From Patescibacteria group bacterium (GTDB taxonomy: Bacteria; Patescibacteriota; Minisyncoccia; Ryanbacterales; GWA2-47-10b): 64,000 nt of DNA. Below, one piece after another: positions 4,453 to 63,862 of this stretch. The stretch lies in NCBI GenBank assembly GCA_038065475.1, contig JBBTQY010000015.1, forward strand, positions 6,608-70,607, in the 5' to 3' direction. The translations under genes and the position numbers were made by a program. Positions within the stretch are counted from its first letter, which is position 1. The number at the start of each line of letters is the position of its first letter. The notes under the pieces were generated by a model. It made no database searches. It worked only from the letters and a program-made list of their open reading frames with translations, and was not told where the DNA came from.

Positions 4453-7400
4453 CTATGCTTTTTCGACAGAGACGACGCTGGGCCCTTTGTTTGTATCGCT
4501 AACCTCAAGGTGTTTGGCGCGCGTACCCTTTTTGATAACTGCGAGCGCTGCGGGTGAAAATGAACCCGTGATCACGAGTACCACCGTATCGAGCGGCAAA
4601 AGGCCCGCTTTCTTGCGAGCGTCTTGAGCAAAACGAATGAGCTCGCGTACCTCGCCTTCTTCTTTGAGTGTTGGCGTGATAACCAAATCAAGTGCTGCGT
4701 CCTCAGTCAATTTACGATTCACGGTAATCTCTTTTACGTTGAGTTCTTCTTTTAGAATATTGAGGAGAGATGAGTCACGCAGTGTCATCCCTTTTACAAA
4801 CAACGCGCCGAGCGGCTGGCGTACCTTGATGCCATTGCGCGCGCGAAGCTCGAGGCCGCGTGCAGCAAGTGCTCGCACCTCATCCATACCGGCGACAAGC
4901 GCCTTGTTATAGGTCTGTTTTTTCGGCCAATCTTCCAAATGCACGCTCTCACGTTTGCCACCGGCAGCACGATATACTATCTCTGCGGTAAACGGGATAA
5001 AGGGAGCAGCAAGAATCGCCGTCTGTAAAAGCGTCTTACGCAAAACCTTGACTCCCTCGCCCGAACGCATTCGCTCGCGCGAGCGACGCACGTACCAGCG
5101 TGAGATGTCGTTACCTACAAAATCTTCAATGAGACGCGCCGCGCCCACCACATCGTAGGCATCCATGCGACGAGTAACCTCAGCGCTGACGAGCGCGCAC
5201 TTTGCCTCCATCCACAAATCAAGCGCATTTTTGCGCGAAGTCTTTTTTGCTACGGGCTTATACATCTCGTAGAAATTGAGTGTATTGAGAAAAAGGTCAA
5301 TAAAATTTCTTTTAGCTTTTTCGAGATCAGAGACATCAAAAAGCTTTGAATCACCCGGCTGGTTAATGGTAAAGAAAAACCAACGCACAGCATCAGCACT
5401 ATATTTTTCAAATAGATCCATGGGCTCCACCACGTTGCCGCGCGATTTTGACATTTTCTTGCCTTCCTTATCTAGAAGGTGTCCGAGCGATATGACATTT
5501 TTGTACGGAGCTTTTTTGCCAAGCAATGTGGAAACCGCAAGAAGCGTATAAAACCATCCGCGCGTTTGATCGATAGCCTCTGAGATAAAATCAGCGGGAT
5601 ATGCGATACCCTTATCAATGCGTTCTTTATTCTCAAACGGATAATGTTCGGCTGCAAACGGCATAGCGCCCGAGTCAAACCATACGTCAGCAACCTCAGG
5701 TGTGCGATCCATCTTGGTCAAACACCCGGGACACGTAACCAAAAAATCATCGATAAATGGCTTGTGCAAATCCGTCTCGCCAAGCTTATTGCGTGGCACG
5801 GCCACGGGAGCTACGCGATGCACATCGGCGTTTTTGAGATATTTTGCGGGAGAGATTTCGTCCGGTTGCTGCATGCCTCGCATAATCCCCTCCAAAAACC
5901 AAAGAGGATCGCCGTGCCCTACGACAAGAATTTTTTTCTTTTTATGCAAACTCTCGAGTCTTTGGAAAAAGCGGTGGCTGCGAATTTTAACATCGGCCCA
6001 TGACTCACCTCCCGGAAACGGATGGGTGAGAATTTCTTCGGCCGTATGTTTCTTCCACATATCCTCGACAAGCTCGCCTTCATAGTCTCCTGGATTATGT
6101 TCGCGCAAATCAGCATCAAACAGCACAGGAACGCGCAGCTCGCGCGCAAGAATTGCAGCCGTCTCGCGCGTGCGCGTCAGGTCAGAGGATACAATGAGCT
6201 GGATACCGGCTTTTTTGAGACCTGCGGCAGCTTTCTTTACTTCTGTTTTTCCGCGCGGCAAAAGCCCATATGAATCATTGAGCTTGGCAGTGGCAATACC
6301 GAGCAAATTATTTTTTGCAAAACCATGGCGCATCAGATAATAAGTATTCGAAGACTTTGGTGCGCGTTCAGTAAGCTCTGCTAAAGAGCCGATGACATCG
6401 ACGTGCCCACACTCTTTACACGTCCAGACAGGAAGCGGCGTGCCCCAGTAACGCTCGCGAGAAAACGCCCAATCTTTATCTTCACGGAGCCACTGGCCAA
6501 AACGCCCGTCGCGAAGATGCTGGGGATGCCAGTTGATAGATTTATTTGCCTCCACCATCTTGGGACGCACCGCACTCACCTTTACCCACCATGACTTACG
6601 TACGCGATAGATAAGCGGCGTGTCACATCGCCAGCAAAACGGATAATCATGCTCATACAATGCTTCTTTAAAAAGAAGGCCCTTCTGTATTAAGTCTTTT
6701 ACGATCAGCGGATCAGCTTCTTTGACAAATATTCCGCGCCACTGTGGTACCGCATCGGTAAATTGACCTGCATCGTTGACGGTTACATAGGTGGGTAAAC
6801 CTTCGCGTTTGCCTACCTTGAGGTCGTCATCACCAAATGCGGGCGCAATATGCACAATACCAGTACCTTCTTGATCGGTGATAAAGGTACCACTCACAAC
6901 CCGATATGGAATATCGGGCGCAGGATACGGCGCGTCATATTCAAGCCCCAAAAGCTTTGAGCCGGGCTCGCGCCAGAGCGGCTCGAGACCGGGAAAGAGC
7001 TTGGCCGCGAGCGACCCGAGCACGATAAGCTGCTCACCCCGATCATCAACGGTAACGTACTCGAGATCTGGATGAACGGCTGCCGCTACGTTTGCAGGCA
7101 ATGTCCATGGAGTTGTCGTCCAAACCAACAAAGACGCGCGGCGTGTCTTGAGACGAAAACGCACATAAACCGAAGGATCTTTTACTTTTTTATATCCTTG
7201 GGCGAGCTCGTGCGATGATAATGCGGTGCCACAACGCGCGCACCACGGCACCACCTTGTCATCTTGGTAGAGTAGCTTGCGTGAGGCAAACTCTTTGACA
7301 ATCCACCAGAGTGATTCGATATAAGAATTTTTGTATGTGACATAGGCATCTTTTGTGTCTAGCCAATACCCCATGCGTTCGGTAACCTTCTCCCACTGAT

Positions 7401-10885: not shown

Positions 10886-11240
10886 GGGAGTGACAGGCCT
10901 CGACGGGGTCTCGACTCTTTGAAAATCAGGCAAGAGCAGGTGTGGTCACCTCTTTCAAAAATGCCACACGCCAATAAGTGCAAACTTATTTAACCGCCAG
11001 CCGGCGATGGCTTTTGCCTAAGCCGCAGGCGTTTCTCTAGCCACTACGTGCTAGAGCATCGGTCCGCAACCGCTAGGTGCGTGGAATGCCGGTGTTATAA
11101 TCCCTAGCTAGTGCGCACTATGCTCGATACCCGCGCGCGAAACTAATCGAGCAAACTCTCTTGCTTCGTGCTTGAGTACGCCTGTATAAATTTTTATTGA
11201 GAAGAACTTTCGGACGGCGGTTCGATTCCGCCCACTTCCA
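10886..11240 (+). ncRNA. ssrA: tmRNA (SsrA), standard one-piece form
   Basis: The 5' end GGGAGTGACAGGCCTCGACGGGG resembles the E. coli tmRNA 5' end. The 3' end ...GGACGGCGGTTCGATTCCGCCCACTTCCA forms a tRNA-like T-arm and a 7-bp acceptor stem with the 5' strand (GGGAGTG/CACTTCC, one G-U pair). The resume context TAAGT-GCA-AAC at 10980 is followed by an in-frame 13-codon tag ORF ending TAA at 11019-11021. CCA is not encoded. Confidence 0.75.
10980..11021 (+). other. tmRNA tag-peptide reading frame, with predicted tag (A)ANLFNRQPAMAFA
   Basis: The frame GCA AAC TTA TTT AAC CGC CAG CCG GCG ATG GCT TTT GCC TAA lies downstream of a UAAGU resume context analogous to E. coli UAGUC-GCA-AAC. Confidence 0.5.
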
Positions 11241-11293
11241 CTGAAATAGTTCGTTTACAACCGACAACGCAGCTAACCTTGTAGGAGAATCAA

Positions 11294-50586: not shown

Positions 50587-51129
50587 TTATGCAGAAATTT
50601 CCAAAAGTGTGCCGCGTGCACCGGGTACTGCACCGCGTACGTACAAAAGATTCTTCTCGGCATCGACTTTGGCGACACGCAAACCCTCAACCGTAACGCG
50701 TGTACCACCCATACGGCCACCCATACGAGTACCCTTGAGTACGCGCTGAGGCCATACCGCACCGATCGAGCCTGGCTCACGATGAGCGTGCTTTACACCG
50801 TGGGTCTTGGGTGCACCTTTAAAGCCGTGGCGCTTGACCACACCCTGAAAACCGCGGCCCTTCATGGTGCCTGATACCTTAACCAGATCTCCTTCGGCAA
50901 ACACCGAAACATCGATTTTTGCACCCTTTTCAAATGAATCTTCGGTGCGAAATTCCTTACGGGTCTTGCCGAATGCGACCTGGACTGCCTCATAGCCATC
51001 CTTTTCCTTGCCCTTTACCTGTGAGACCTCGACGGGACCAGCCTGAATGACGGTCACAGGGATTACCGTGCCGTCGTCTTGAAATATTTGGCTCATTTCG
51101 AGCTTTTTGCCGAGGATGAATTTTTTCAT
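50587..51129 (-). CDS. rplC: 50S ribosomal protein L3
   Basis: Canonical L3 sequence. rpsJ is not directly upstream; a 5.4-kb insert separates them. Confidence 0.9.
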   Translation of the reverse strand: MKKFILGKKLEMSQIFQDDGTVIPVTVIQAGPVEVSQVKGKEKDGYEAVQVAFGKTRKEFRTEDSFEKGAKIDVSVFAEGDLVKVSGTMKGRGFQGVVKRHGFKGAPKTHGVKHAHREPGSIGAVWPQRVLKGTRMGGRMGGTRVTVEGLRVAKVDAEKNLLYVRGAVPGARGTLLEISA

Positions 51130-51296
51130 AGACCCCGCTTATTGGAGCTGCTCCCTTTGGGTAATAAAACACCCCGCACGGCGGGGCTAGGCCTTACCGT
51201 TACTATCTGGGGGGAAATCACCCGAGAAACATGACCCCTTTGTAGCACAACGAAAAAGAGCTGTCTAGAGGGAAGATCAAGGCACCAAAAAAAGAA

Positions 51297-51325
51297 TTGA
51301 CAATAAGCATTTACTGGTTTATTAT
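51297..51325 (+). promoter_or_regulatory. Near-consensus sigma70-type promoter for pseudo-receiver module 1
   Basis: TTGACA (51297-51302), a 17-nt spacer, then TATTAT (51320-51325). A GGAAGGAGGG RBS follows, then the ATG at 51346. Confidence 0.45.
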
Positions 51326-51345
51326 AGGCACCGGAAGGAGGGTTG

Positions 51346-51759
51346 ATGACCCAACATGAAAAGAAGGCGGTTCTCATCGTCAATGGAGACCAGGAAAGCC
51401 GGCGCCTTTTGCGCTTCCGTTTGGAGCGAGCTGGCTACCGCGCAGTCATGACAACCAAGGGCAGTATTGCGCTCGACGTGATCATGGATGGCGGTAAGCC
51501 CGACCTCATCGTCACGGAGCTCGTGCTCCCTGGACTTGACGGCTTCGGCCTGATCGAAGGCGTGCGTAGACAACACACGCTCCAAGACCTGCCGATCATC
51601 GTGCTCACCGCACAGACTCTGGGCGGTGTGCGTGAGCGGGCGCTCGCGGCGGGTGCCAACGAGTTCTTCACCATCCCACTCGAGGAGCCTCTGGCTCTCA
51701 CGGCGGCCATTCGGCGACTTCTCGAAGCCGTGCCCGCCCGGCACACCCAGCTCGGATAG
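51346..51759 (+). CDS. Stand-alone receiver-domain protein in which Glu replaces the phospho-acceptor Asp (atypical / pseudo-receiver)
   Basis: A CheY-like fold is indicated by ...AVLIVNGDQESRRLL...DLIVTELVLPGLDG...IIVLTAQ...K at about +50 aa. The canonical LLDxxMPxxDG is replaced by VTELVLPGLDG, and the acidic pair DD is replaced by NGD. The sequence is GC-rich. Confidence 0.55.
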   Translation: MTQHEKKAVLIVNGDQESRRLLRFRLERAGYRAVMTTKGSIALDVIMDGGKPDLIVTELVLPGLDGFGLIEGVRRQHTLQDLPIIVLTAQTLGGVRERALAAGANEFFTIPLEEPLALTAAIRRLLEAVPARHTQLG

Positions 51760-51785
51760 AGCCTCCGAGCAGAGAGGAGGGGGAA

Positions 51786-51983
51786 ATGCCTGGAGAAAGA
51801 GTTCTCGTCATCACAACCAATCTGAGCCCGCTCGAGAGCGTGCTCCAGGGACTGGGCATGATCCGAGAAGCCCGTGAGGAGTTCCTTGGCACGACCATCG
51901 TGGTGTACGGCGCGCTGGACGCGTCGCCACCAACGGAGTTCGTGCCGCTCCACCGTACACTCGAGAAGCTTCCCAACTCGTAA
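51786..51983 (+). CDS. Small hypothetical protein (65 aa), partner of pseudo-receiver 1
   Basis: An AGAGGAGGGGG RBS precedes the ATG. Its N-terminus MPGERVLVITT resembles that of the 52147 ORF (KTGERITVMT). Confidence 0.4.
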   Translation: MPGERVLVITTNLSPLESVLQGLGMIREAREEFLGTTIVVYGALDASPPTEFVPLHRTLEKLPNS

Positions 51984-52003
51984 CAAGCGCCCACGCGCGC
52001 AAC

Positions 52004-52037
52004 CCCGGTCACCAACATCAACGGTGACCGGTTTTTT
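52004..52037 (+). terminator. Rho-independent terminator
   Basis: ccggtcacc-aacatcaac-ggtgaccgg followed by TTTTTTTAT. Confidence 0.55.
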
Positions 52038-52039
52038 TA

Positions 52040-52068
52040 TTGACATTTTATAAGAAATAGTATATAAA
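52040..52068 (+). promoter_or_regulatory. Near-consensus sigma70-type promoter for module 2
   Basis: TTGACA (52040-52045), a 17-nt spacer, then TATAAA (52063-52068). It lies immediately after the module-1 terminator. Confidence 0.45.
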
Positions 52069-52146
52069 AAGCCTAGATTTCTTCCCTATCCCCTGCGGCT
52101 GCGGCCCAGGGCTTCCCCTTTACCAAAAGGGCTATCGGAGGACACG

Positions 52147-52524
52147 ATGCGAGTAACCTTGAAAACGGGCGAGAGAATCACGGTCATGACACCGGACGAC
52201 GACACAGAAGCCGGTCGTCTGGCCTACAATCTTCTCTTTACCCTGCTCGCCCTTCTCGCGTCAGAGACGCCGCGAGACATCAAGCTGAAGTTCCAATTCA
52301 CTGGCAAGAACTCAGCTACGATCGCTCTGTTCATCGACGACAAGCTGCGCGAGAATATTCCGTGCATCAACTTCAACCTGGGGCGCTCGGTGGGTCGCGC
52401 ACGCGCCGTCGACCTGATACGCTTCCGTCTCGGTGGGCTCGTCTGCGCGCTGACCGGCGGCAAGTTCGCACTACTCGACGACATCAACGCGGGCTCGACG
52501 ATCCACCTTGCCCGCCTTCTCTGA
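52147..52524 (+). CDS. Hypothetical protein (125 aa) whose N-terminal motif is related to the 65-aa ORF
   Basis: A GGAGGA RBS lies 4 nt upstream. It begins MRVTLKTGERITVMTPDDD..., and no family was recognised. Confidence 0.4.
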   Translation: MRVTLKTGERITVMTPDDDTEAGRLAYNLLFTLLALLASETPRDIKLKFQFTGKNSATIALFIDDKLRENIPCINFNLGRSVGRARAVDLIRFRLGGLVCALTGGKFALLDDINAGSTIHLARLL

Positions 52525-52538
52525 CGAGAGGAAATAAC

Positions 52539-52910
52539 ATGCCAAACAGCAAAACCGTACTACTCGCAGATACACGAAGCTACCGGATGGAATGGGAAGC
52601 GCTCATCGGATATCAGGTCGGGACACACTCAATTCGTTTCCATGAAGCTTGGAGTGTATTGAGCGCGGTCGCGGCCACACAGCGTGAGTGTCCAAACCTC
52701 ATCATCACCGAGCTGCTCGGTGCCGAGCATGGATGCTGGATGATCCGTGAACTGCGCCGCATCGCGCCCGACTCCCGCATCATCGTGGTGTCGGCGAACA
52801 ATACAGACAGGATCGCCGACGCAATCCATGCGGGAGCAGTCGAATACTTCACCAAGCCCCTCGACTACGACAGGTTCATCGGCACCGTGCGGCGATACCT
52901 CGAGCTCTAG
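52539..52910 (+). CDS. Second stand-alone atypical receiver-domain protein (Glu at the phospho-acceptor position)
   Basis: It contains KTVLLADTRSY...NLIITELLGAEHGCW...RIIVVSANN...K, with the same TEL substitution as the 51346 protein. A GAGAGGA RBS is present; the start was chosen at MPNSK. Confidence 0.5.
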   Translation: MPNSKTVLLADTRSYRMEWEALIGYQVGTHSIRFHEAWSVLSAVAATQRECPNLIITELLGAEHGCWMIRELRRIAPDSRIIVVSANNTDRIADAIHAGAVEYFTKPLDYDRFIGTVRRYLEL

Positions 52911-52934
52911 GCGCACACACGCCACCAACGCCAC

Positions 52935-52978
52935 GAGGCGCTTCTGGAAGCATTCCGGAAGCGCCTCTTTTCTTTTTT
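52935..52978 (+). terminator. Rho-independent terminator after module 2
   Basis: A 10-bp stem gaggcgcttc...gaagcgcctc followed by TTTTCTTTTTT. Confidence 0.55.
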
Positions 52979-53024
52979 GTACGGCTTGACCGCTAGGATA
53001 AAATGGTTTACTCTCTGGGCTAAA

Positions 53025-53099
53025 GCTGGCGGAGCGAACGCGCCGAAGTTGGGGAACTCTCCCACCCTGATAACGGACGCCCTTGTTCGCTCCGCCAGC
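53025..53099. ncRNA. Candidate structured RNA or cis-element: a 15-bp perfect inverted repeat enclosing a 45-nt loop that has internal hairpins
   Basis: gctggcggagcgaac (53025-39) and gttcgctccgccagc (53085-99). The loop contains the gggaactctccc hairpin. It lies in intergenic sequence between the module-2 terminator and a convergent gene terminator (53151-53176). Confidence 0.2.
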
Positions 53100-53193
53100 C
53101 CATCGAAGCACTTTCGACCATCCCCTGCAGCCAGAGACGGCATCACAAAAAAACCACACCATCCACGGTGTGGTTTCGTCATTTTATACAGAG

Positions 53194-53523
53194 TTAAGCG
53201 CGCGAAACTTTAATATATCGGTAAATCGAGCGCACGATACTAATAAGACCCGCGCCCAGAAGAATAGGAAGAGCAACGAGTCCCGCGGAGCATCGCCAAT
53301 CTTCTCCCTGTACACCAAAGCAAGCAGCGAAAGTTATAAAAAAGATAAATGCTGCGGGAATGCCAGCGATAAGAGCTACCTCCACAATGTGCAAAAGCAA
53401 AGAAAAAATATTCACTATTTTACGGCGAGGCAAAAAGAATATGAGTACTAACACAAGTAAAAACGCGCAGAGTATTACTATCTCTGGATAAAAGAAAAAT
53501 AATTCTGCGATATCTCGTAACAT
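53194..53523 (-). CDS. Hypothetical small membrane protein
   Basis: A 109-aa ORF with 3 hydrophobic helices. A terminator hairpin aaaccacacc...ggtgtggttt lies downstream on the minus strand. Confidence 0.4.
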   Translation of the reverse strand: MLRDIAELFFFYPEIVILCAFLLVLVLIFFLPRRKIVNIFSLLLHIVEVALIAGIPAAFIFFITFAACFGVQGEDWRCSAGLVALPILLGAGLISIVRSIYRYIKVSRA

Positions 53524-53540
53524 ATTTTTATATTAATCTC

Positions 53541-53993
53541 TTAAAAAACTTTTTTGCCGTGCGCGTTCCAGTACATCCAGAGATGTACTGCGGCAACGAT
53601 GTACAAGATAGCGGTCACCGTAAAGACAAACCCGCCCCATGCGATGCGCATTCCAATATTGTTGCCGATGATTGGTACAAGACCAAGGTTAATACCCGAC
53701 ACCACGCTGACAAAAAACATAACAGTATCACGCATATCTTTTTTACCAAACACTTTCTGCCCGCCTGTATACCAGCGCCAGCCGAGATATGCTGATGCCG
53801 CGCCCGAGACGAGCCACGAGAGTGTGAGGATGGTGCCTACCAGTCCATAAAAAACTGAAGAGCCAAGCAGCCAATAGAGTGGCGGCGTGCCGCCTAACAG
53901 TAATGCAAATGCGGCGATAACTAACCGCGCCTCTGACCAGAGAAAAGAATACTTTTCCAAATTCTCCGGCTTTGTAAATTCTTGTGTGGTCAT
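53541..53993 (-). CDS. Hypothetical membrane protein. It is the intact copy of the gene whose 5' end is repeated twice nearby.
   Basis: A 150-aa ORF with 4 transmembrane helices. Its N-terminus MTTQEFTKPENLEKYSFLWSEAR recurs in truncated form at 55024-55101 and 55838-55900. Confidence 0.5.
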   Translation of the reverse strand: MTTQEFTKPENLEKYSFLWSEARLVIAAFALLLGGTPPLYWLLGSSVFYGLVGTILTLSWLVSGAASAYLGWRWYTGGQKVFGKKDMRDTVMFFVSVVSGINLGLVPIIGNNIGMRIAWGGFVFTVTAILYIVAAVHLWMYWNAHGKKVF

Positions 53994-54112
53994 ATATGCA
54001 TGAGATTACTGATATCGTCTTTAGTATATCACCTTAAGTTACCAACAAGCATCAACCTCTATGCACAGAACAATACTAGCGCCTAAGAACCAAAACTCCT
54101 TATAATAAACTT

Positions 54113-54421
54113 ATGACTTACTGGCAAAGATTAGCGCGTAGTACTTCTGCCTTTGGTTTACTCTGGTTATTTGTGTTTCTATCAGATGTGCTAGGACAAG
54201 TAAAAAGCTTTGTGCCTCAAAAAGCTTATGTCCCGCAAGAAGCTCTTCTGAAAAACATACAAGAAACTTGGTTTGCCGGTTTAGTAGGTACCTTTCTCAC
54301 AATAATACTGTTCTCACTTTTTATTCGCTCAGAAAAAATCTATACCGCGCAATCTACAGGATCAATAATTGGTTTCCTTTTTGCGACTGTACTTGTAATA
54401 AGCTGGAAACTATTTTCCTAA
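54113..54421 (+). CDS. Hypothetical membrane protein
   Basis: A 102-aa ORF with 3 transmembrane helices. A terminator follows (aaaaccgcccaagggcggtttttgg, 54437-54462). Confidence 0.35.
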   Translation: MTYWQRLARSTSAFGLLWLFVFLSDVLGQVKSFVPQKAYVPQEALLKNIQETWFAGLVGTFLTIILFSLFIRSEKIYTAQSTGSIIGFLFATVLVISWKLFS

Positions 54422-54515
54422 GAGTATTTTCGATCAACCAAAAACCGCCCAAGGGCGGTTTTTGGTTGGACAGGATCCTTTGACTACATCTTTACTTCGA
54501 CATCAACACCGCAAA

Positions 54516-54755
54516 TTATTTTAATTGAACAACCTTGGCCTTGGAACCAAGAAAATGTTCCAGTTTACCCTTACCTTCGCGAAAAGTATCAAAGCTGAAA
54601 CCGTGAATATCGATACGTACCGGATTGCCCTTTTTATCAACATCAATAACCACGTTGCCCCTGATATCAGAATCAACGCTTTTGCCTTTACCTACGGCAA
54701 GGGAAAGTACCTCGCTGCCGCGGTCGTATGAAATTTTTCTTTGTTGTTTGCTCAT
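54516..54755 (-). CDS. DUF2283-family protein (putative antitoxin-like partner)
   Basis: A 79-aa ORF with KISYDRGSEVLSLAVGKGKSV...GNVVIDVDKKGNPVRIDIHGFS, which matches the DUF2283 pattern (ISYD.E.D.LYI.....GN.VGIEIL.AS). Confidence 0.55.
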   Translation of the reverse strand: MSKQQRKISYDRGSEVLSLAVGKGKSVDSDIRGNVVIDVDKKGNPVRIDIHGFSFDTFREGKGKLEHFLGSKAKVVQLK

Positions 54756-55000
54756 AAATATTTCTTGATTTTAGATGTTTCTATAACTGTAATAACACGC
54801 AGTGTATCTTTTACTTTTTCACCAATAACTATCAACAGTCTCGGTATATGCCGCTTTTTATACAGCTTTTTAAACATCAATCTACCTCTTGCATCATATA
54901 ATATTTTTGTTGGATTTACCAATGCTTCCTCAATGAGTGCTACGGAAATAGATCTCTCCTGCATCCGTAATTTTGCGTGAGGAGATAAAGTATATTTCAT
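54752..55000 (-). CDS. DUF4258-family protein (putative toxin-like partner)
   Basis: An 82-aa ORF with MKYTLSPHAKLRMQERSISVALIEEAL.NP.KI..D.....F...........VIGEKV.DTLRVITV, which matches DUF4258. It overlaps the DUF2283 gene by 4 nt. Confidence 0.55.
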   Translation of the reverse strand: MKYTLSPHAKLRMQERSISVALIEEALVNPTKILYDARGRLMFKKLYKKRHIPRLLIVIGEKVKDTLRVITVIETSKIKKYL

Positions 55001-55023
55001 GGATACATACTATCACAGACATA

Positions 55024-55101
55024 TTACACCCACCGCGCCTCTGACCAGAGAAAAGAATACTTTTCCAAATTCTCCAGCTTCATAAATTCATTTGTGGTCA
55101 T
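55024..55101 (-). pseudogene. Truncated duplicate (copy B) of the 5' end of gene 53541..53993
   Basis: It reads atgaccacaaatgaatttatgaagctggagaatttggaaaagtattcttttctctggtcagaggcgcggtgggtgtaa (MTTNEFMKLENLEKYSFLWSEARWV*). About 70 nt are near-identical to 53924-53993. It abuts the start of the DUF4258 gene. Confidence 0.5.
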
Positions 55102-55106
55102 AGGAT

Positions 55107-55499
55107 TTAAGAACTAAAATATTTAATAATTAAGGAAAAACCGACAAAGACTAAAACAAAAAAAATAAATATGATGTACCGAGGGAGCTCCCCTTTCTCT
55201 TGAGGACGCTTTGCCCCAACTAAATCTTTGGCCGTACCAATAGCAATTCCAGCGGGCATGCTCCCCAAACCATATGACTGTGTATCTTTACCAGTCAAAC
55301 CGGTAAGTTTTCGATATCGATACCATTTTGCATATCCAACTAATAACGTTCCTATAAAGAATGTTGGCCATAGCATTATCCAGAGATTTTCATTCATATC
55401 GGGAAATGCCGCTGTCAAAAAACCCATCGCAACAAAAGTTACAACAAATGCAAGAAGGTAGTAAGTGTAAAGCGTGAATGGTTTCCTGGGGGACTCCAT
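55107..55499 (-). CDS. Hypothetical membrane protein
   Basis: A 130-aa ORF with 4 transmembrane helices. The start was chosen at MESPRKPF; the longest ORF extends into GC-rich upstream sequence that is probably non-coding. Confidence 0.35.
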   Translation of the reverse strand: MESPRKPFTLYTYYLLAFVVTFVAMGFLTAAFPDMNENLWIMLWPTFFIGTLLVGYAKWYRYRKLTGLTGKDTQSYGLGSMPAGIAIGTAKDLVGAKRPQEKGELPRYIIFIFFVLVFVGFSLIIKYFSS

Positions 55500-55548
55500 A
55501 TTTTCAGTATACCATCCGAAATAAAAAACCGCCCGAGGGGGCGGGGTG

Positions 55549-55803
55549 TCACTTGATCGTGTAGTAGGGCACGCCCCTGACCACGTGTCTCTCAGCAGTA
55601 TGTCCGCCGATACCCAGAAGCAACCCGATGAGGGTCTCGCCATCAGCAGGTATGAGCCTGCCCGAAAAGTTGATTGACATGACCTTCTCAGGATCGGTCC
55701 GCGCTGAGGGCGGAGGACCACTACTACTGCCGGCCCTGACCCGATAGATCTTGAATGTGCGCGGGGGCTCAAACGAAATTACATCGCCACTATTCAACCT
55801 CAC
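55549..55803 (-). CDS. Small GC-rich hypothetical protein (GTG start)
   Basis: An AGGAGG RBS lies 6 nt upstream of the GTG at 55803. The GC content is atypical for the AT-rich neighbourhood. No family was recognised. Confidence 0.3.
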   Translation of the reverse strand: MRLNSGDVISFEPPRTFKIYRVRAGSSSGPPPSARTDPEKVMSINFSGRLIPADGETLIGLLLGIGGHTAERHVVRGVPYYTIK

Positions 55804-55837
55804 AAGCCACCTCCTTTCTGGCACAGGCTAGCACAAA

Positions 55838-55900
55838 CTAAAAACCTCCGCCAAGCGGAGGTTCCAAATTCTCCGGCTTTGTAAATTCTTGTGTGGTCAT
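55838..55900 (-). pseudogene. Truncated duplicate (copy C) of the 5' end of gene 53541..53993
   Basis: It reads atgaccacacaagaatttacaaagccggagaatttggaa (identical to 53955-53993), then cctccgcttggcggaggtttttag, which forms a hairpin. Confidence 0.5.
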
Positions 55901-55929
55901 AGATAAAAATTATTTTTAGCTAATAAAAA

Positions 55930-56502
55930 TTAATTTTCATAGCCTAGCGTGCGATCGTTAGCGACAAGATGATATTTGCTTCCGCCAACATCTACTAAAA
56001 GCTCTATATCGTAAGGTCCTACGGGATGAGTAACTTTTTTATATTCAAGTTTAACAATGACATCCTCGCCTTCTTTAACTAGCAATGGAACATCTTCGAG
56101 AACAATATAAAGTTTTTTTCGGAAACTAGCCCAATCAAATACTTGAACACCAAGAACAGACTTACCGAAGTCTTCGAGCTCAGATTTTAAAGCGTCGAGG
56201 GAATATTTATAAAAAGCTTTTTTGATTTCTTGAGATAATATCTCACTCCAAATATTATTATCTATGTATTTACTAGCTTTTGCGAGCACATAAATCTCGT
56301 TTAGTATTTTCTCTGCATCTTTTGTAAGAAATGCATGGCATATCCAATTTCTATAAAATCTTATTACCTTAAAATTCGATTGTCGACCTGGAACCAATTC
56401 CAAATACTTACAAATTCCCACTAAAACATAAATTATGTCTTGTTCTGAATATGATGTTTGGGTAAAAATATTTTTAGTCTTATCTAAAATTACTGATTTC
56501 AT
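55930..56502 (-). CDS. Hypothetical protein (190 aa, AT-rich), no recognisable family
   Basis: A long ORF with a terminator downstream (aaagccccgcagggcggggctttt, 56519-56542). It sits directly upstream of rpsJ. Confidence 0.45.
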   Translation of the reverse strand: MKSVILDKTKNIFTQTSYSEQDIIYVLVGICKYLELVPGRQSNFKVIRFYRNWICHAFLTKDAEKILNEIYVLAKASKYIDNNIWSEILSQEIKKAFYKYSLDALKSELEDFGKSVLGVQVFDWASFRKKLYIVLEDVPLLVKEGEDVIVKLEYKKVTHPVGPYDIELLVDVGGSKYHLVANDRTLGYEN

Positions 56503-56552
56503 AAAGCTCTCTAGAAAACAAAAGCCCCGCAGGGCGGGGCTTTTGGTCTCGT

Positions 56553-56885
56553 TTACATCTTTACCTCTACATCAACACCGGCAGGAAGGTTGAGGTTGGT
56601 GAGCGCATCGATGATCTTGGGCGTTGGGTCCTTGATATCGACAATGCGCTTGTGCACGCGCATCTCAAACTGTTCGCGAGCGTTTTTGTGCACGAATGTC
56701 GAGCGGTTTACTGTGTACTTACGGATTTCCGTAGGCAGCGGCACCGGCCCTACAATCTCGCCTCCGTACCTGCGCGCGGTCTCTACAATCTGCTTTACCG
56801 ACGCGTCGATGACCTTGTTGTCATACGCGCGGATGCGAATGCGGAGCTTGGTCGCGGTTGGAGTTTTGTCTGCTGCTCGTGCCAT
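56553..56885 (-). CDS. rpsJ: 30S ribosomal protein S10
   Basis: ...[40 protein letters not shown]... is the canonical S10 sequence. Confidence 0.9.
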
Positions 56886-56909
56886 GTGATGTGTTAGTAA
56901 GGGTTAGAA

Positions 56910-58106
56910 TTATTTGCTGATTTTAGTTACAACACCAGCACCTACCGTCTTACCACCCTCGCGGATAGCAAAGCGCTGTTTTTCTTCGAGTGCTACGGCC
57001 TGTACGAGTTTTACTTGGAACTTCATCGTATCACCTGGCATAACCATCTCGGTGCCCTGTGGAAGGGTTACCTCGCCTGTTACGTCAGTGGTGCGGATGT
57101 AAAACTGTGGCTTGTAGCCAGCGAAAAATGGCGTGTGGCGTCCACCTTCATCTTTGGTGAGGATATATACCTCAGCTTCAAACTCGGTGTGAGGGGTGAC
57201 TGATCCTGGCTTTGCCAAAACCTGACCGCGCTCAACATCTTCTTTTTTGAGACCACGAAGCAAGAGACCAGCGTTGTCACCTGCCTGACCCTCGTCAAGA
57301 GATTTATTGAACATTTCGATACCGGTCACCACAGTCTTTTGTGTGTCGCGGATACCAATGATTTCAATTTCCTCGCCTACTTTTACCTGACCGCGCTCGA
57401 TCTTACCGGTAACCACGGTGCCACGTCCTTCAATCGAGAAGACGTCTTCTACTGGCATCAAGAATGGCTTTTGGAGATCGCGAACTGGCTCAGGGATATA
57501 GGTATCGAGCTGATGGGTAAGCTCAAGCACTGCCTTGACCGCTGGGTCTTCGGCTGACTTGCCTTCCAATGCCTTGAGAGCTGAGCCGCGGATGATTGGG
57601 GTCTTGTCACCTGGGTATTCGTACTTGGTGAGAAGGTCACGAATTTCCTGCTCGACAAGGTCGATAAGCTCTGGATCGTCTACTGCATCGCACTTGTTGA
57701 GAAATACGATGATTGAGGGTACACCTACCTGCTTTGCAAGCAAGATGTGCTCGCGCGTCTGAGGCATAGGGCCATCAGTTGCGGCTACCACGAGCACTGC
57801 GCCATCCATCTGGGCGGCACCCGTGATCATGTTTTTGATATAGTCGGCGTGTCCCGGCGCATCGATGTGCGCATAGTGGCGAACTGCCGACTCATATTCT
57901 GAGTGGTGGAGTGCAATAGTAATACCACGCGCCCGCTCCTCGGGTGCGTTGTCAATCTGGCTCACATCCTCAACACGCACCTTGTTTCCGGCGAGTGCCA
58001 AGCTATGGAGAATTGCCGCCGTCAAAGTAGTCTTACCGTGGTCGACGTGACCAATGGTGCCTACGTTGAGGTGCGGTTTTGAACGGTCAAATTTTTCCGC
58101 TGCCAT
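56910..58106 (-). CDS. tuf: Elongation factor Tu
   Basis: A 398-aa ORF with [18 protein letters not shown] and NKCD motifs. Confidence 0.95.
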
Positions 58107-58464: not shown

Positions 58465-58490
58465 ACAGCGGAGCCCGTGGGGGCTCCGCT
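58465..58490 (-). terminator. Rho-independent terminator of the GC-rich secreted-protein gene
   Basis: cagcggagccc-gtgg-gggctccgctg, followed on the minus strand by a U-rich tract (the plus strand reads aaaaaatcaatataaaagaagaa upstream). Confidence 0.5.
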
Positions 58491-58555
58491 GTGGTGCGGG
58501 GTGTTCGCGGGGGTGCGAACGAGAGAACGGGGGAACGGGGGAACGAGAAGCTTCG

Positions 58556-59164
58556 TCAGCTGGTCGTGCGCGCCTGCGGGTCGTTCGAGCTGTGGCCCGG
58601 AACCCTGGCGAGTGCGCCGATGTCGTGCGGGCTGCCGCGCGAGCCGTCGTCGATGCCGGCGAAGGTGATGCTGCCGACGAGGATGCCGGCCGCGGTGGTG
58701 CTGATGGCGCCGCTGGCACCCGTGTCGTCGTAGAACGCCGTGCAGATCATCGTCTCGCAGACGCCGAGGCCAGCCTGGGCCATGGTCGTCGCGGTGGTGA
58801 GGTCGGCCTTCTTGCCGCCCTGCATGAACTGGTACACGCCGGACTCGGTCTTGGTCAGCTCGATGGCCGCGCCGGTCTGGTTGGTGTCGATCGTGCCGCT
58901 GCTCTGGGTCACGGTGGGCTCGGTCCAGTCGAAGGCGATCAGATCGCCTGCCATGAGCTCCACGCGCGGGACGAGCGCGATGTCGCGCTGGATGTTGTCG
59001 TCCGGGCCGGTGTCGATCATGCGGCCGATGTACGTCGAACCGGTGTTCGTCTGCTCCGTGCCCACGCCGAGCGGGACGAGCAGGCCGAGGGCCACGATCA
59101 TCGCCACAGCGATGGTCCACGGAGCGTAGGTGCCGATGCGGAACCGCTTGATGCTCTGGGTCAT
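58556..59164 (-). CDS. GC-rich hypothetical secreted or membrane-anchored protein, Thr/Gly-rich
   Basis: A GGAGGA RBS lies 6 nt upstream of the ATG at 59164. An N-terminal signal/anchor is present (MTQSIKRFRIGTYAPWTIAVAMIVALGLLVPLGVG). The overlapping long ORFs in other frames are compositional artefacts. Confidence 0.45.
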   Translation of the reverse strand: MTQSIKRFRIGTYAPWTIAVAMIVALGLLVPLGVGTEQTNTGSTYIGRMIDTGPDDNIQRDIALVPRVELMAGDLIAFDWTEPTVTQSSGTIDTNQTGAAIELTKTESGVYQFMQGGKKADLTTATTMAQAGLGVCETMICTAFYDDTGASGAISTTAAGILVGSITFAGIDDGSRGSPHDIGALARVPGHSSNDPQARTTS

Positions 59165-59330
59165 CTTCTTTCCTCCGTCGTTGTCGAGGAGCTCCCCTGG
59201 TAAGGGGGCTCGGTGGTGGTACTTCCCCCTCACTATACCCAAGCTCGATATTTTCGTCAATATTCCTGTGCAAAAATCAAAAAGCGCCCCTCCGCATACG
59301 CTCCGGACGCTTTTTGGTCAAAATACGTTT

Positions 59331-62485: not shown

Positions 62486-63178
62486 TCAGCCGCAGGCGCA
62501 GGGTACGCCCGAGGTGCTGGGTTTGCACGAGAGCCCGGTGGTGCAGTCGCCACCGCACTGGTTGGTACCGGGGATGAGCCCGCACGGTTGCGAGATCTGC
62601 GGCACACAGCGGCAGATGTCCGCGGCATCGGGCCGACAGACGTCGGTCGTGTCGGGGCAGGTACCACCGCACTGGTGAGGCGCGGTCGGTCCGCAGTCGG
62701 GATTCGGCGGCGTGGTCGTCTTGTAGGCCGGCACGAGAAGTTCACGCGTGGTCGCCTTGCGGTCGATCTGCGCGATTCCCCGTACGAACTGGTCCGAAAC
62801 GCCCTGCGCGAAGTTCGCCTGCGACGGACACCGCATCTTGTAGACGAAGTAGTCCGACTTGAGGTCGACACCCACGGGTGCCTGCCGCGGCACCTTGTCG
62901 ACGGGGATGCAGAGCTTGATGGGTCGCGGCGCCTTGAGCGGCAGCAGCCTGCAGCCGTCCTCGACCGCGAACGGCGGGACCTGGAAGGGGCGCAAGACGA
63001 GCGGGTCGAAGGCGTGCCCCGAGACCTGCAGCTCACCCTTCTTGAAGCCGATCTTGTAGCACTTGAGGTGGTCGAAGAGCGGCCCCGCCTGCGCGAACGC
63101 GCTGGCGGGCAGGATCATGGCCAGGACGGCCATCGTGACGGCCAGCGCCATCGTGGTCAACATTCGCTTCGTTGTCAT
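62486..63178 (-). CDS. GC-rich, Cys-rich secreted hypothetical protein (paralog 1)
   Basis: An AAAGAGGA RBS is present. The signal peptide is MTTKRMLTTMALAVTMAVLAMILPASAFA. Its C-terminus holds more than 14 Cys within Gly/Pro/Thr-rich repeats. It shares the motifs L.CY...GE...C.L...CIP.D with the 63389..63862 protein. Confidence 0.5.
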   Translation of the reverse strand: MTTKRMLTTMALAVTMAVLAMILPASAFAQAGPLFDHLKCYKIGFKKGELQVSGHAFDPLVLRPFQVPPFAVEDGCRLLPLKAPRPIKLCIPVDKVPRQAPVGVDLKSDYFVYKMRCPSQANFAQGVSDQFVRGIAQIDRKATTRELLVPAYKTTTPPNPDCGPTAPHQCGGTCPDTTDVCRPDAADICRCVPQISQPCGLIPGTNQCGGDCTTGLSCKPSTSGVPCACG

Positions 63179-63388: not shown

Positions 63389-63862
63389 TTACGGCGAGAA
63401 GATGGTGGCGGGGACCACCACCATGGTGGGCCCGGGCTTGCCGTTGGCCGTTACAAGACCATCACCGAGACGCGAGTCGAGCGCCTCGGTGAAGTCGAGA
63501 CCAGTCTTGCCGCACGCGACCAGGTAAAGCAGGTATGCTGGTGCGTCGAGCGGAGTGCCGTAGGGGCCTTCGTCGGCGGACTGGATGTCGGCCGGGATGC
63601 AGACCATGAAGGGTTTGTGCCTCTTCAGATCGCACTCCTCGTACCCCATTCCGAACCCGGCGGGCTGGACGTAGATCTTGGGTCCCGCGTCGGTCGTGAA
63701 CGTCTCGCCTCTGGTCTTCGCCCGGTAACAGGCCAGACCATCGAAGATGGGGGAATCGGCGTGGGCGAAGGACGCCGCCAGATTGAGAATGCAGACGAGC
63801 GCCGCGATGGCCAGAAAAAGGAGCAGCACGAACCGGAAAGCCACCCAGATTCTTCGGAGCAT
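63389..63862 (-). CDS. GC-rich secreted hypothetical protein (paralog 2)
   Basis: An N-terminal hydrophobic signal is present (VAFRFVLLLFLAIAALVCILNLAASFAHA). LACYRAKTRGE...EECDLKRHKPFMVCIPAD is homologous to paralog 1 (LKCYKIGFKKGE...EDGCRLLPLKAPRPIKLCIPVD). Confidence 0.45.
   Translation of the reverse strand: MLRRIWVAFRFVLLLFLAIAALVCILNLAASFAHADSPIFDGLACYRAKTRGETFTTDAGPKIYVQPAGFGMGYEECDLKRHKPFMVCIPADIQSADEGPYGTPLDAPAYLLYLVACGKTGLDFTEALDSRLGDGLVTANGKPGPTMVVVPATIFSP

Follow-up and report, generated by a model that had tools for sequence, protein, structure and literature searches.

A probable promoter-anchored locus of glutamate-substituted receivers beside rplC in Ryanbacteria-like genomes

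The DNA analysed here, a stretch of 64,000 nucleotides (nt) referred to as the window, is from a metagenome-assembled genome (MAG) of a Patescibacteria bacterium from Hainich groundwater, and carries the str/S10/spc ribosomal cluster on its minus strand in the order S12, S7, EF-G, EF-Tu, S10 and then L3, L4, L23, L2 onwards. The genes of S10 (rpsJ) and L3 (rplC) are usually neighbours, and their junction is ordinarily one of the most stable gene junctions in bacteria. Here the two genes are 5.4 kb apart, and the part of this gap closest to L3 is GC-rich and contains, on the opposite strand, two genes for stand-alone receiver domains, rec1 and rec2, in which glutamate takes the place of the phospho-acceptor aspartate.

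Receiver genes in the S10-L3 gap

The four plus-strand open reading frames (ORFs) reported in an initial annotation, which had been made from the letters of the window alone, were all present: rec1, two small ORFs named orf65 and orf125, and rec2 (Table 1). Both receivers exceeded the Pfam Response_reg (PF00072) gathering score of 30.2 bits and had many receiver matches in the PDB. Alignment to the receiver family, by HMMER to PleD and Spo0F and by MAFFT with CheY and the closest homologues, placed Glu and not Asp at the equivalent of CheY D57, PleD D53 and Spo0F D54 in each protein, and the earlier claims that the acceptor is substituted in both, and that both are candidates for a phosphomimetic or pseudo-receiver state, thus held. 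In rec1 the acidic pocket DD is changed to N and G, and K109 to Ile; rec2 has kept one acidic pocket residue and K109, and has Ser at T87. Neither protein combines the phosphorylatable Asp with the acidic Mg2+ pocket of a canonical response regulator, and both, having a REC match and no acceptor Asp, belong to the already described class of ALR or pseudo-receivers. Full-length alignment to solved receivers suggests a (beta/alpha)5 fold for rec1 and rec2, which are single-domain proteins of 123-138 aa with a REC match only; NCBIfam and PADLOC gave nothing but generic receiver matches below their cut-offs. No histidine kinase was found among the ORFs of at least 120 aa in the 64-kb window with jackhmmer seeded with EnvZ, nor was one present in the gene calls.

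The gene rec2, whose product is named a response regulator by NCBI (MEK7650174.1), is lost from the ENA and Logan gene calls to an antisense ORF of 177 aa (52629-53162, minus strand). It is preferred over the antisense ORF because it has the Pfam match and the correct phase of GC content at third codon positions (GC3). The whole region has 57-62% GC versus about 49% for the genome, and GC3 in rec1, orf65, orf125 and rec2 is 0.69-0.75, with coding-type GC periodicity in their own frame, versus 0.43-0.53 in the ribosomal genes. The atypical GC-rich composition and the location in a ribosomal operon, between rpsJ and rplC, were in this way confirmed.

Each of the four ORFs has a Shine-Dalgarno-like sequence 5-9 nt upstream, and both of the terminators proposed initially were recovered as a strong hairpin followed by a U-run. 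The two near-consensus promoters fared differently. Both sequences are present and the first was found by the scan, but the second was absent from the scan list, its last -10 position being A where the scan demands T, and promoter-like sites were not enriched relative to shuffled sequences (1 found, 3.1 expected).

Table 1. Positions in the window of the features discussed
Feature	Position	Strand	Evidence or remark
rplC (ribosomal protein L3)	50587-51129	-	Pfam Ribosomal_L3; conserved left flank, divergently oriented from the receivers
Ultraconserved non-coding element on the rplC side of the receiver promoter	51160-51270		109 nt; alignment of relatives
Sigma-70-like promoter of the first receiver, TTGACA-17-TATTAT	51297-51325	+	Scan, 11/12 consensus matches
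Shine-Dalgarno (GGAAGGAGGG) and rec1 start codon	51331-51345	+	Nucleotide homology of relatives ends exactly here
rec1, stand-alone receiver, Glu at the D57 position (DLIVTELVLPGLDG)	51343/51346-51759	+	Pfam Response_reg 59.7 bits and alignments
orf65, strain-specific ORF, 65 aa	51786-51983	+	Receiver fragment (beta3-alpha3-beta4)
Intrinsic terminator after orf65, 9-bp GC-rich stem then T7	52005-52037	+	-17.3 kcal/mol, z -3.94
Second promoter-like site, TTGACA-17-TATAAA, unique to this genome	52040-52068	+	Read from the sequence
orf125, strain-specific orphan ORF, GGAGG Shine-Dalgarno, coding-type GC periodicity	52147-52524	+	Self-matches only
rec2, stand-alone receiver, Glu at the D57 position (NLIITELLGAEHG)	52539-52910	+	Pfam Response_reg 38.3 bits and alignments
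Intrinsic terminator after rec2	52935-52977	+	Scan; -28 kcal/mol, z -5.06
m109, small hydrophobic protein, strain-specific, within the variable segment	53194-53523	-	tblastn matches in the same genome only
m150, conserved membrane-protein gene, right flank of the variable segment	53541-53993	-	84-93% aa identity in L085, L005 and L086
S10 (rpsJ)	56553-56885	-	Gene of the str/S10/spc cluster

Related genomes and a probable pseudo-receiver locus

Searches with L3 of genome and metagenome collections gave four further genomes with L3 92-97% identical to that of the window, designated L004, L005, L086 and L085 (L084 being the same sequence as the last), with Candidatus (Ca.) Ryanbacteria MAGs among them. 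None of the four is from the site of the window; Lake Baikal and JGI samples are among their sources. Immediately upstream of rplC, and in divergent orientation to it, all four have stand-alone receivers: one each in L004, L005 and L086, and two in L085, the closest relative, where they are separated by about 10 nt and by no small ORF. The acceptor segments are PDIMVVEIVA in L004, PDLMITEIVF in L005, PDIMVIEIVA in L086, and VDLVITELPF and PPVVITEIVF in L085. With rec1 and rec2 included, Glu is at the acceptor position in all seven receivers of the five genomes, T or S is at T87 in all seven, and K109 is kept in every one except rec1. The locus receivers are only 25-50% identical to each other, versus 84-99% for S10, L3 and m150, and among 15 billion proteins clustered at 90% identity none of them shares its cluster with more than one other sequence. 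In more distant relatives, with L3 76-79% identical, the S10-L3 gap measures 300-500 nt and contains no receiver, a receiver beside L3 was seen in no other locus within the approximately 2 Mb examined, and an exact look-up of the S10 sequence returned the same genome only. No paper describing an rplC-anchored, hypervariable receiver locus was found.

In BLASTN comparisons of the window with its relatives, the ribosomal genes and the entire intergenic region between rplC and the receiver were 84-93% identical. This homology breaks off exactly at the receiver start codon (51342/51343); it picks up again at the m150 stop codon, with the breakpoint at 53541-53542 in the L085 and L005 comparisons and at 53532 in that with L086. 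Within the conserved part the -35 element TTGAC is invariant in the five genomes, the -10 element is TAnnnT at an unchanged position in each of them, and the AAGG core of the ribosome-binding site (RBS) and the ATG are likewise invariant, with the fuller GAAGGAG in 4/5; the second promoter-like site has no counterpart in the relatives. Between rplC and the promoter lies a non-coding element of 109 nt that is 100% identical in L085 (7862-7970) and 91-97% identical in L086 (7861-7971), L005 (2739-2858) and L004 (2169-2280), versus 79-89% for the flanking coding DNA, and that was seen in no genome other than the five with receivers. On the minus strand it ends in a GC hairpin with a T-run (51187-51171), about 40 nt ahead of the start codon of L3. 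The element had no match in Rfam, and its fold is no more stable than that of shuffled sequences (z -0.54). Its possible roles are those of a leader or attenuator for rplC, of a regulatory site or of a site for recombination.

The contrast between flanks and receivers was also apparent from substitution rates. Between the window and L085 the S10, L3 and m150 genes have a nonsynonymous divergence (dN) of 0.004-0.04 and a synonymous divergence (dS) of 0.14-0.5, whereas dN of the receivers is 0.8-0.96 and their proportion of synonymous differences (pS) is 0.61-0.67, which is near saturation. As the receivers have diverged so much more than their flanks, the receiver cassettes are much older than the divergence of the genomes. 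For the receivers of L086 and L004, the sole closely related and alignable pair of alleles, dN/dS is 0.35, which is below 1 and about ten times the S10 and L3 values; these receivers are under purifying selection, looser than that on S10 and L3. From these data we infer that the cassettes did not drift in place but represent old alleles, or else unrelated receivers, that recombination in the conserved flanks has exchanged. A GC3 of about 0.7 was likewise measured in the L004 and L005 receiver genes, and L085 is GC-rich in its receiver region as well, so the odd composition travels with the locus and does not point to one recent transfer into this genome. The simple horizontal acquisition suggested by the initial annotation is therefore not supported; the promoter, RBS, start codon and Glu receivers are common to the clade and the coding cassette varies. 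The high GC may stem from DNA imported frequently from GC-rich donors, or from gene conversion with a GC bias at a recombination hotspot.

Taken together, positions 51343-53540 are probably the variable coding segment of a promoter-anchored pseudo-receiver locus of a Ca. Ryanbacteria-like clade, the products of which would be kinase-independent adaptors. The conserved promoter, RBS and ATG upstream of rplC, pointing away from it, would drive one or two stand-alone Glu receivers for which normal phosphorylation should be impossible. Through contacts with the conserved Thr and Lys, Glu can imitate the phosphorylated form of a receiver (PMC4395418; PMC12632262), and Glu together with the retained T/S and Lys, both present in 6/7 proteins, may hold an active-like conformation that is independent of a kinase. 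As single-domain adaptors the receivers would then work by binding other proteins, and the amount made, not a kinase, would control them. Alleles would be exchanged through recombination in the conserved flanks, and orf65 would be a by-product of such rearrangement and not a dedicated partner.

Several observations weigh against this reading. The change from D to E fails to activate some receivers, for example CheY and PhoB (PMC4395418), and as rec1 is without the acidic pocket and K109, the idea of a Glu-T-K phosphomimetic may not apply to it. The closest database homologues of rec1 are Asp-bearing CheY-like proteins, 43% identical and encoded beside CheA in an organism of 71% GC, against which rec1 scores better than against any other receiver at the locus; because these nearest relatives carry Asp, the Glu of rec1 may be convergent. 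The best relative of rec2 at the locus is the receiver of L005, at 33% identity, and both window proteins are so divergent that their membership of a family with the second L085 receiver (L085B) and the L005, L086 and L004 receivers appears weak. The sample is five genomes, and any function of the receivers is suggested by their conservation. Finally, orf65 and orf125 have a good Shine-Dalgarno and coding-type GC3 periodicity, and may have a strain-specific function.

It appears unlikely that the segment is decaying foreign DNA, in which the receivers would be non-functional remnants of a captured two-component or chemotaxis set, Glu would stem from relaxed constraint and the small ORFs would be debris. 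The relation of rec1 to CheA-adjacent proteins of a high-GC organism, its loss of DD, D57 and K109, the elevated dN/dS, the lack of a kinase nearby in the window, and the nature of orf65 as a gene fragment and of orf125 as an orphan (see below) would all fit such decay. Drift should however yield mixed residues at the acceptor position, where Glu was found without exception, and the receiver ORFs are intact in every genome, behind a conserved promoter, RBS and ATG. The joint retention of T/S and K in all receivers but one and the dN/dS below 1 of the alignable pair are likewise at odds with decay.

The small ORFs between the receivers

Between rec1 and rec2 lie about 780 nt of strain-specific DNA with orf65, a terminator, the second promoter-like site and orf125. 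Both small ORFs gave self-matches only among 5.8 billion clustered proteins, had no tblastn match in about 170 related loci, and had no Pfam, PDB, NCBIfam or PADLOC match even at lenient thresholds. A scan of viral contigs with orf125 gave nothing, and phmmer run without filters against 1.84 billion representatives returned for orf125 nothing but summed weak matches to giant cadherin-repeat proteins, additive weak scores that were dismissed as repeat artefacts. ORFs resembling orf65 or orf125 are absent from all four relatives that carry Glu receivers.

In a directed comparison with hidden Markov models (HMMs), orf65 scored 15.4 bits with the model made from the locus receivers and 9.3 bits with a generic receiver model, neither of which scores was reached by any of 1000 shuffles, and hhalign against receivers gave P = 4.8e-5. 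The match is to a partial domain, spanning orf65 residues 3-43 and corresponding to receiver beta3-alpha3-beta4. The segment GERVLVITT of orf65 aligns on the beta3 signature (E)RPDLxITE of the family, and its acceptor position is Asn in both alignments. By these alignments orf65 represents part of a third receiver rather than a whole domain, and its GER motif is the receiver beta3 signature. For orf125 neither the directed HMM nor hhalign gave a receiver signal, and it remains an orphan; its AlphaFold2 (AF2) model made without an alignment, with a pLDDT of 35, was unusable.

The initial annotation had explained the four ORFs as two duplicated modules, each with a Glu receiver and a small partner opening with a GER motif, forming a horizontally acquired, kinase-independent regulator or adaptor pair, which is now very unlikely. 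The layout of promoter, two ORFs and terminator does occur twice, all four ORFs have a Shine-Dalgarno and a GC3 of about 0.72, and the shared motif is real: the 8-mers GERVLVIT of orf65 and GERITVMT of orf125 have a BLOSUM62 score of 28, which was reached by 32 of 5000 shuffles, and by 0/5000 when both copies were required near the N-terminus, and are thus rarer than chance. Outside the 8-mer no similarity between the two was found by BLASTP. The pairing of receiver with partner does not recur, as the small ORFs have no homologue in the protein, viral or related-locus searches above and are missing beside the receivers of the relatives, those of L085 being adjacent. The duplication with swapped gene order is contradicted by orf65 being itself a receiver fragment and by the similarity of rec1 to rec2, which at 33 bits is no closer than that of either to unrelated receivers; the two are not each other's closest relatives. 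The supposed partner ORFs should not be spread as a family in annotation.

It is scarcely likely that orf125 is a degenerate GHKL/HATPase_c-type protein similar to RsbW or SpoIIAB and a pseudo-kinase partner of rec2, which would make the second half of the segment a degenerate kinase-receiver pair. By eye, an N-box-like helix (RLAYNLLFTLLA), a DD at the place of the G1 box and a C-terminal GGKFALLDDINAGSTIHL resembling the G2/last-strand region can be recognised, hhalign puts the last 19 residues on that same region with P = 0.064, and the order helix, strand, strand in the low-confidence AF2 model matches. The score against a HATPase HMM of five sequences was however 0.5 bits, which was reached by 40/1000 shuffles and is not significant, there was no Pfam HATPase_c match at E <= 10 and no PDB match, orf125 would lack the catalytic Asn as well as the G1 glycines, and it is without homologues for building a profile. 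The explanation that GC-rich foreign reads were joined to the ribosomal operon contig in assembly or binning, to which only the GC difference between region and genome would point, is refuted by the junction of L3 and rec1, which is not chimeric because it is identical in three independent assemblies (ENA and two from Logan, of different runs), and by the GC-rich Glu receivers at the same position in four genomes from other sites.

Known systems, cargo and other features

Receivers without the acceptor Asp have been described as a class in which Glu is the commonest substitution, at 26% (PMC4395418), and pseudo-receivers are common, with a mode of action in bacteria that is largely unknown (PMC12632262). 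The locus proteins resemble members of this class such as ChxR of Chlamydia trachomatis in their Pfam REC match, in the Asp to Glu change and in keeping, in most cases, the first acidic residue and the pocket Lys, as is typical for the class, and activity independent of phosphorylation would be expected of them by this likeness. In contrast to ChxR and most characterised members, which carry a DNA-binding or other output domain, they are receiver-only, and no described member was found with anchoring to a promoter on the rplC side and hypervariability.

Single-domain response regulators of the CheY type work through protein-protein contacts. With these (CheY, DivK, Spo0F and CpdR) the locus proteins share the one-domain architecture, as well as the resemblance of rec1 to CheY-like proteins encoded beside CheA, but in those systems Asp is phosphorylated by a cognate kinase or phosphorelay, whereas here Asp is absent and the window has no kinase. 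The pseudo-receivers of plant pseudo-response regulators (PRR, including TOC1) and of fungal Rim15p also have Glu in place of the acceptor Asp (PMC12632262), but are eukaryotic multidomain proteins with a CCT or kinase domain, with no evolutionary link past the generic REC fold. The CCT output domain of plant-type PRR is absent from rec1 and rec2, and the resemblance to plant PRR pointed out initially holds for the substitution, a common one, but for nothing further beyond the REC fold.

The near-identical flanks around a middle that has diverged beyond the background are also seen in staphylococcal agr and in comQXP of Bacillus, and by analogy suggest old alleles that recombination has kept or exchanged. 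In agr and comQXP the signal, the processing enzyme and the sensor kinase are variable and the response regulator is conserved, whereas at the rplC locus it is the receiver itself that varies. What is unusual here is that proteins of a known class consist of a receiver only, have a conserved promoter next to rplC as their anchor, are hypervariable among closely related genomes and lie in a gap that collects cargo. A more far-reaching reading, which is tentative, is that of a cassette site at which stand-alone receivers of different ancestry, each selected for Glu, are swapped in or kept as ancient alleles. They would form a diversifying, kinase-free signalling or recognition module in a gap of defence and toxin-antitoxin cargo, with micro-ORFs of receiver fragments as recombination by-products, and perhaps be tied to the expression of the ribosomal operon via the 109-nt element. 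Divergent stand-alone receivers behind one conserved promoter, all with Glu and T/S and 6/7 with Lys, make up a compact test set for Glu as a built-in phosphomimetic.

The S10-L3 gap is a variable cargo site, by which the rpsJ-rplC junction is shown to be variable in one lineage of ultra-small bacteria. A pair of DUF4258 and DUF2283 genes, resembling a toxin-antitoxin pair, was found inside the gap both in the window (54516-55000, minus strand) and in L086 (5974-6458), with 83-89% aa identity. In L085 the cargo of the window is replaced by a gene for a 550-aa AbiU abortive-infection protein (4792-6444; PADLOC 233 bits). The 5' end of the m150 gene, about 70 nt including the start codon, is present in three copies that are 65-100% identical (53924-53994, 55032-55102 and 55831-55901), of which the two extra ones are directly upstream of the DUF4258/DUF2283 pair and of a 221-aa ORF, and it looks as if cargo genes have been inserted repeatedly just behind a duplicated m150 5' end. 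No family match was found for m109.

A hairpin upstream of rplC (51167-51188) and the terminator hairpin after rpsJ (56520-56541) are 86% identical over 22 nt and have the sequence AAA(C/A)(A/G)CCCCGCA(C/G)GGCGGGGCT in common, which is consistent with one ancestral hairpin of the S10-L3 spacer that was duplicated when the gap opened. Rfam gave nothing relevant on 50900-57000. An imperfect inverted repeat of 20 nt (51277-51296 and 52970-52989, 75% complementary) that frames the four ORFs was judged to be due to chance, its left arm being within the flank common to the relatives.

Elsewhere in the window an insertion of about 775 nt and 65% GC (58490-59263) separates fusA from tuf, and L085 and L086 do not have it. 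It contains a 234-aa ORF (58556-59260, minus strand) with a GC3 of 0.92. The product, for which there is no Pfam match, resembles a secreted protein with a signal anchor; in public gene calls the place of this ORF is taken by an antisense ORF of 261 aa. Two further minus-strand ORFs, at 62486-63178 and 63389-63862, adjoin rpsL, have a GC3 of 0.80-0.88 and encode secreted proteins with a common N-terminal motif L(K/A)CY(K/R) and no Pfam match, the product of the former being Cys-rich. At these two the gene calls favour antisense ORFs of 304 and 185 aa. The tmRNA gene is located at 10886-11241 and encodes the tag peptide ANLFNRQPAMAFA.

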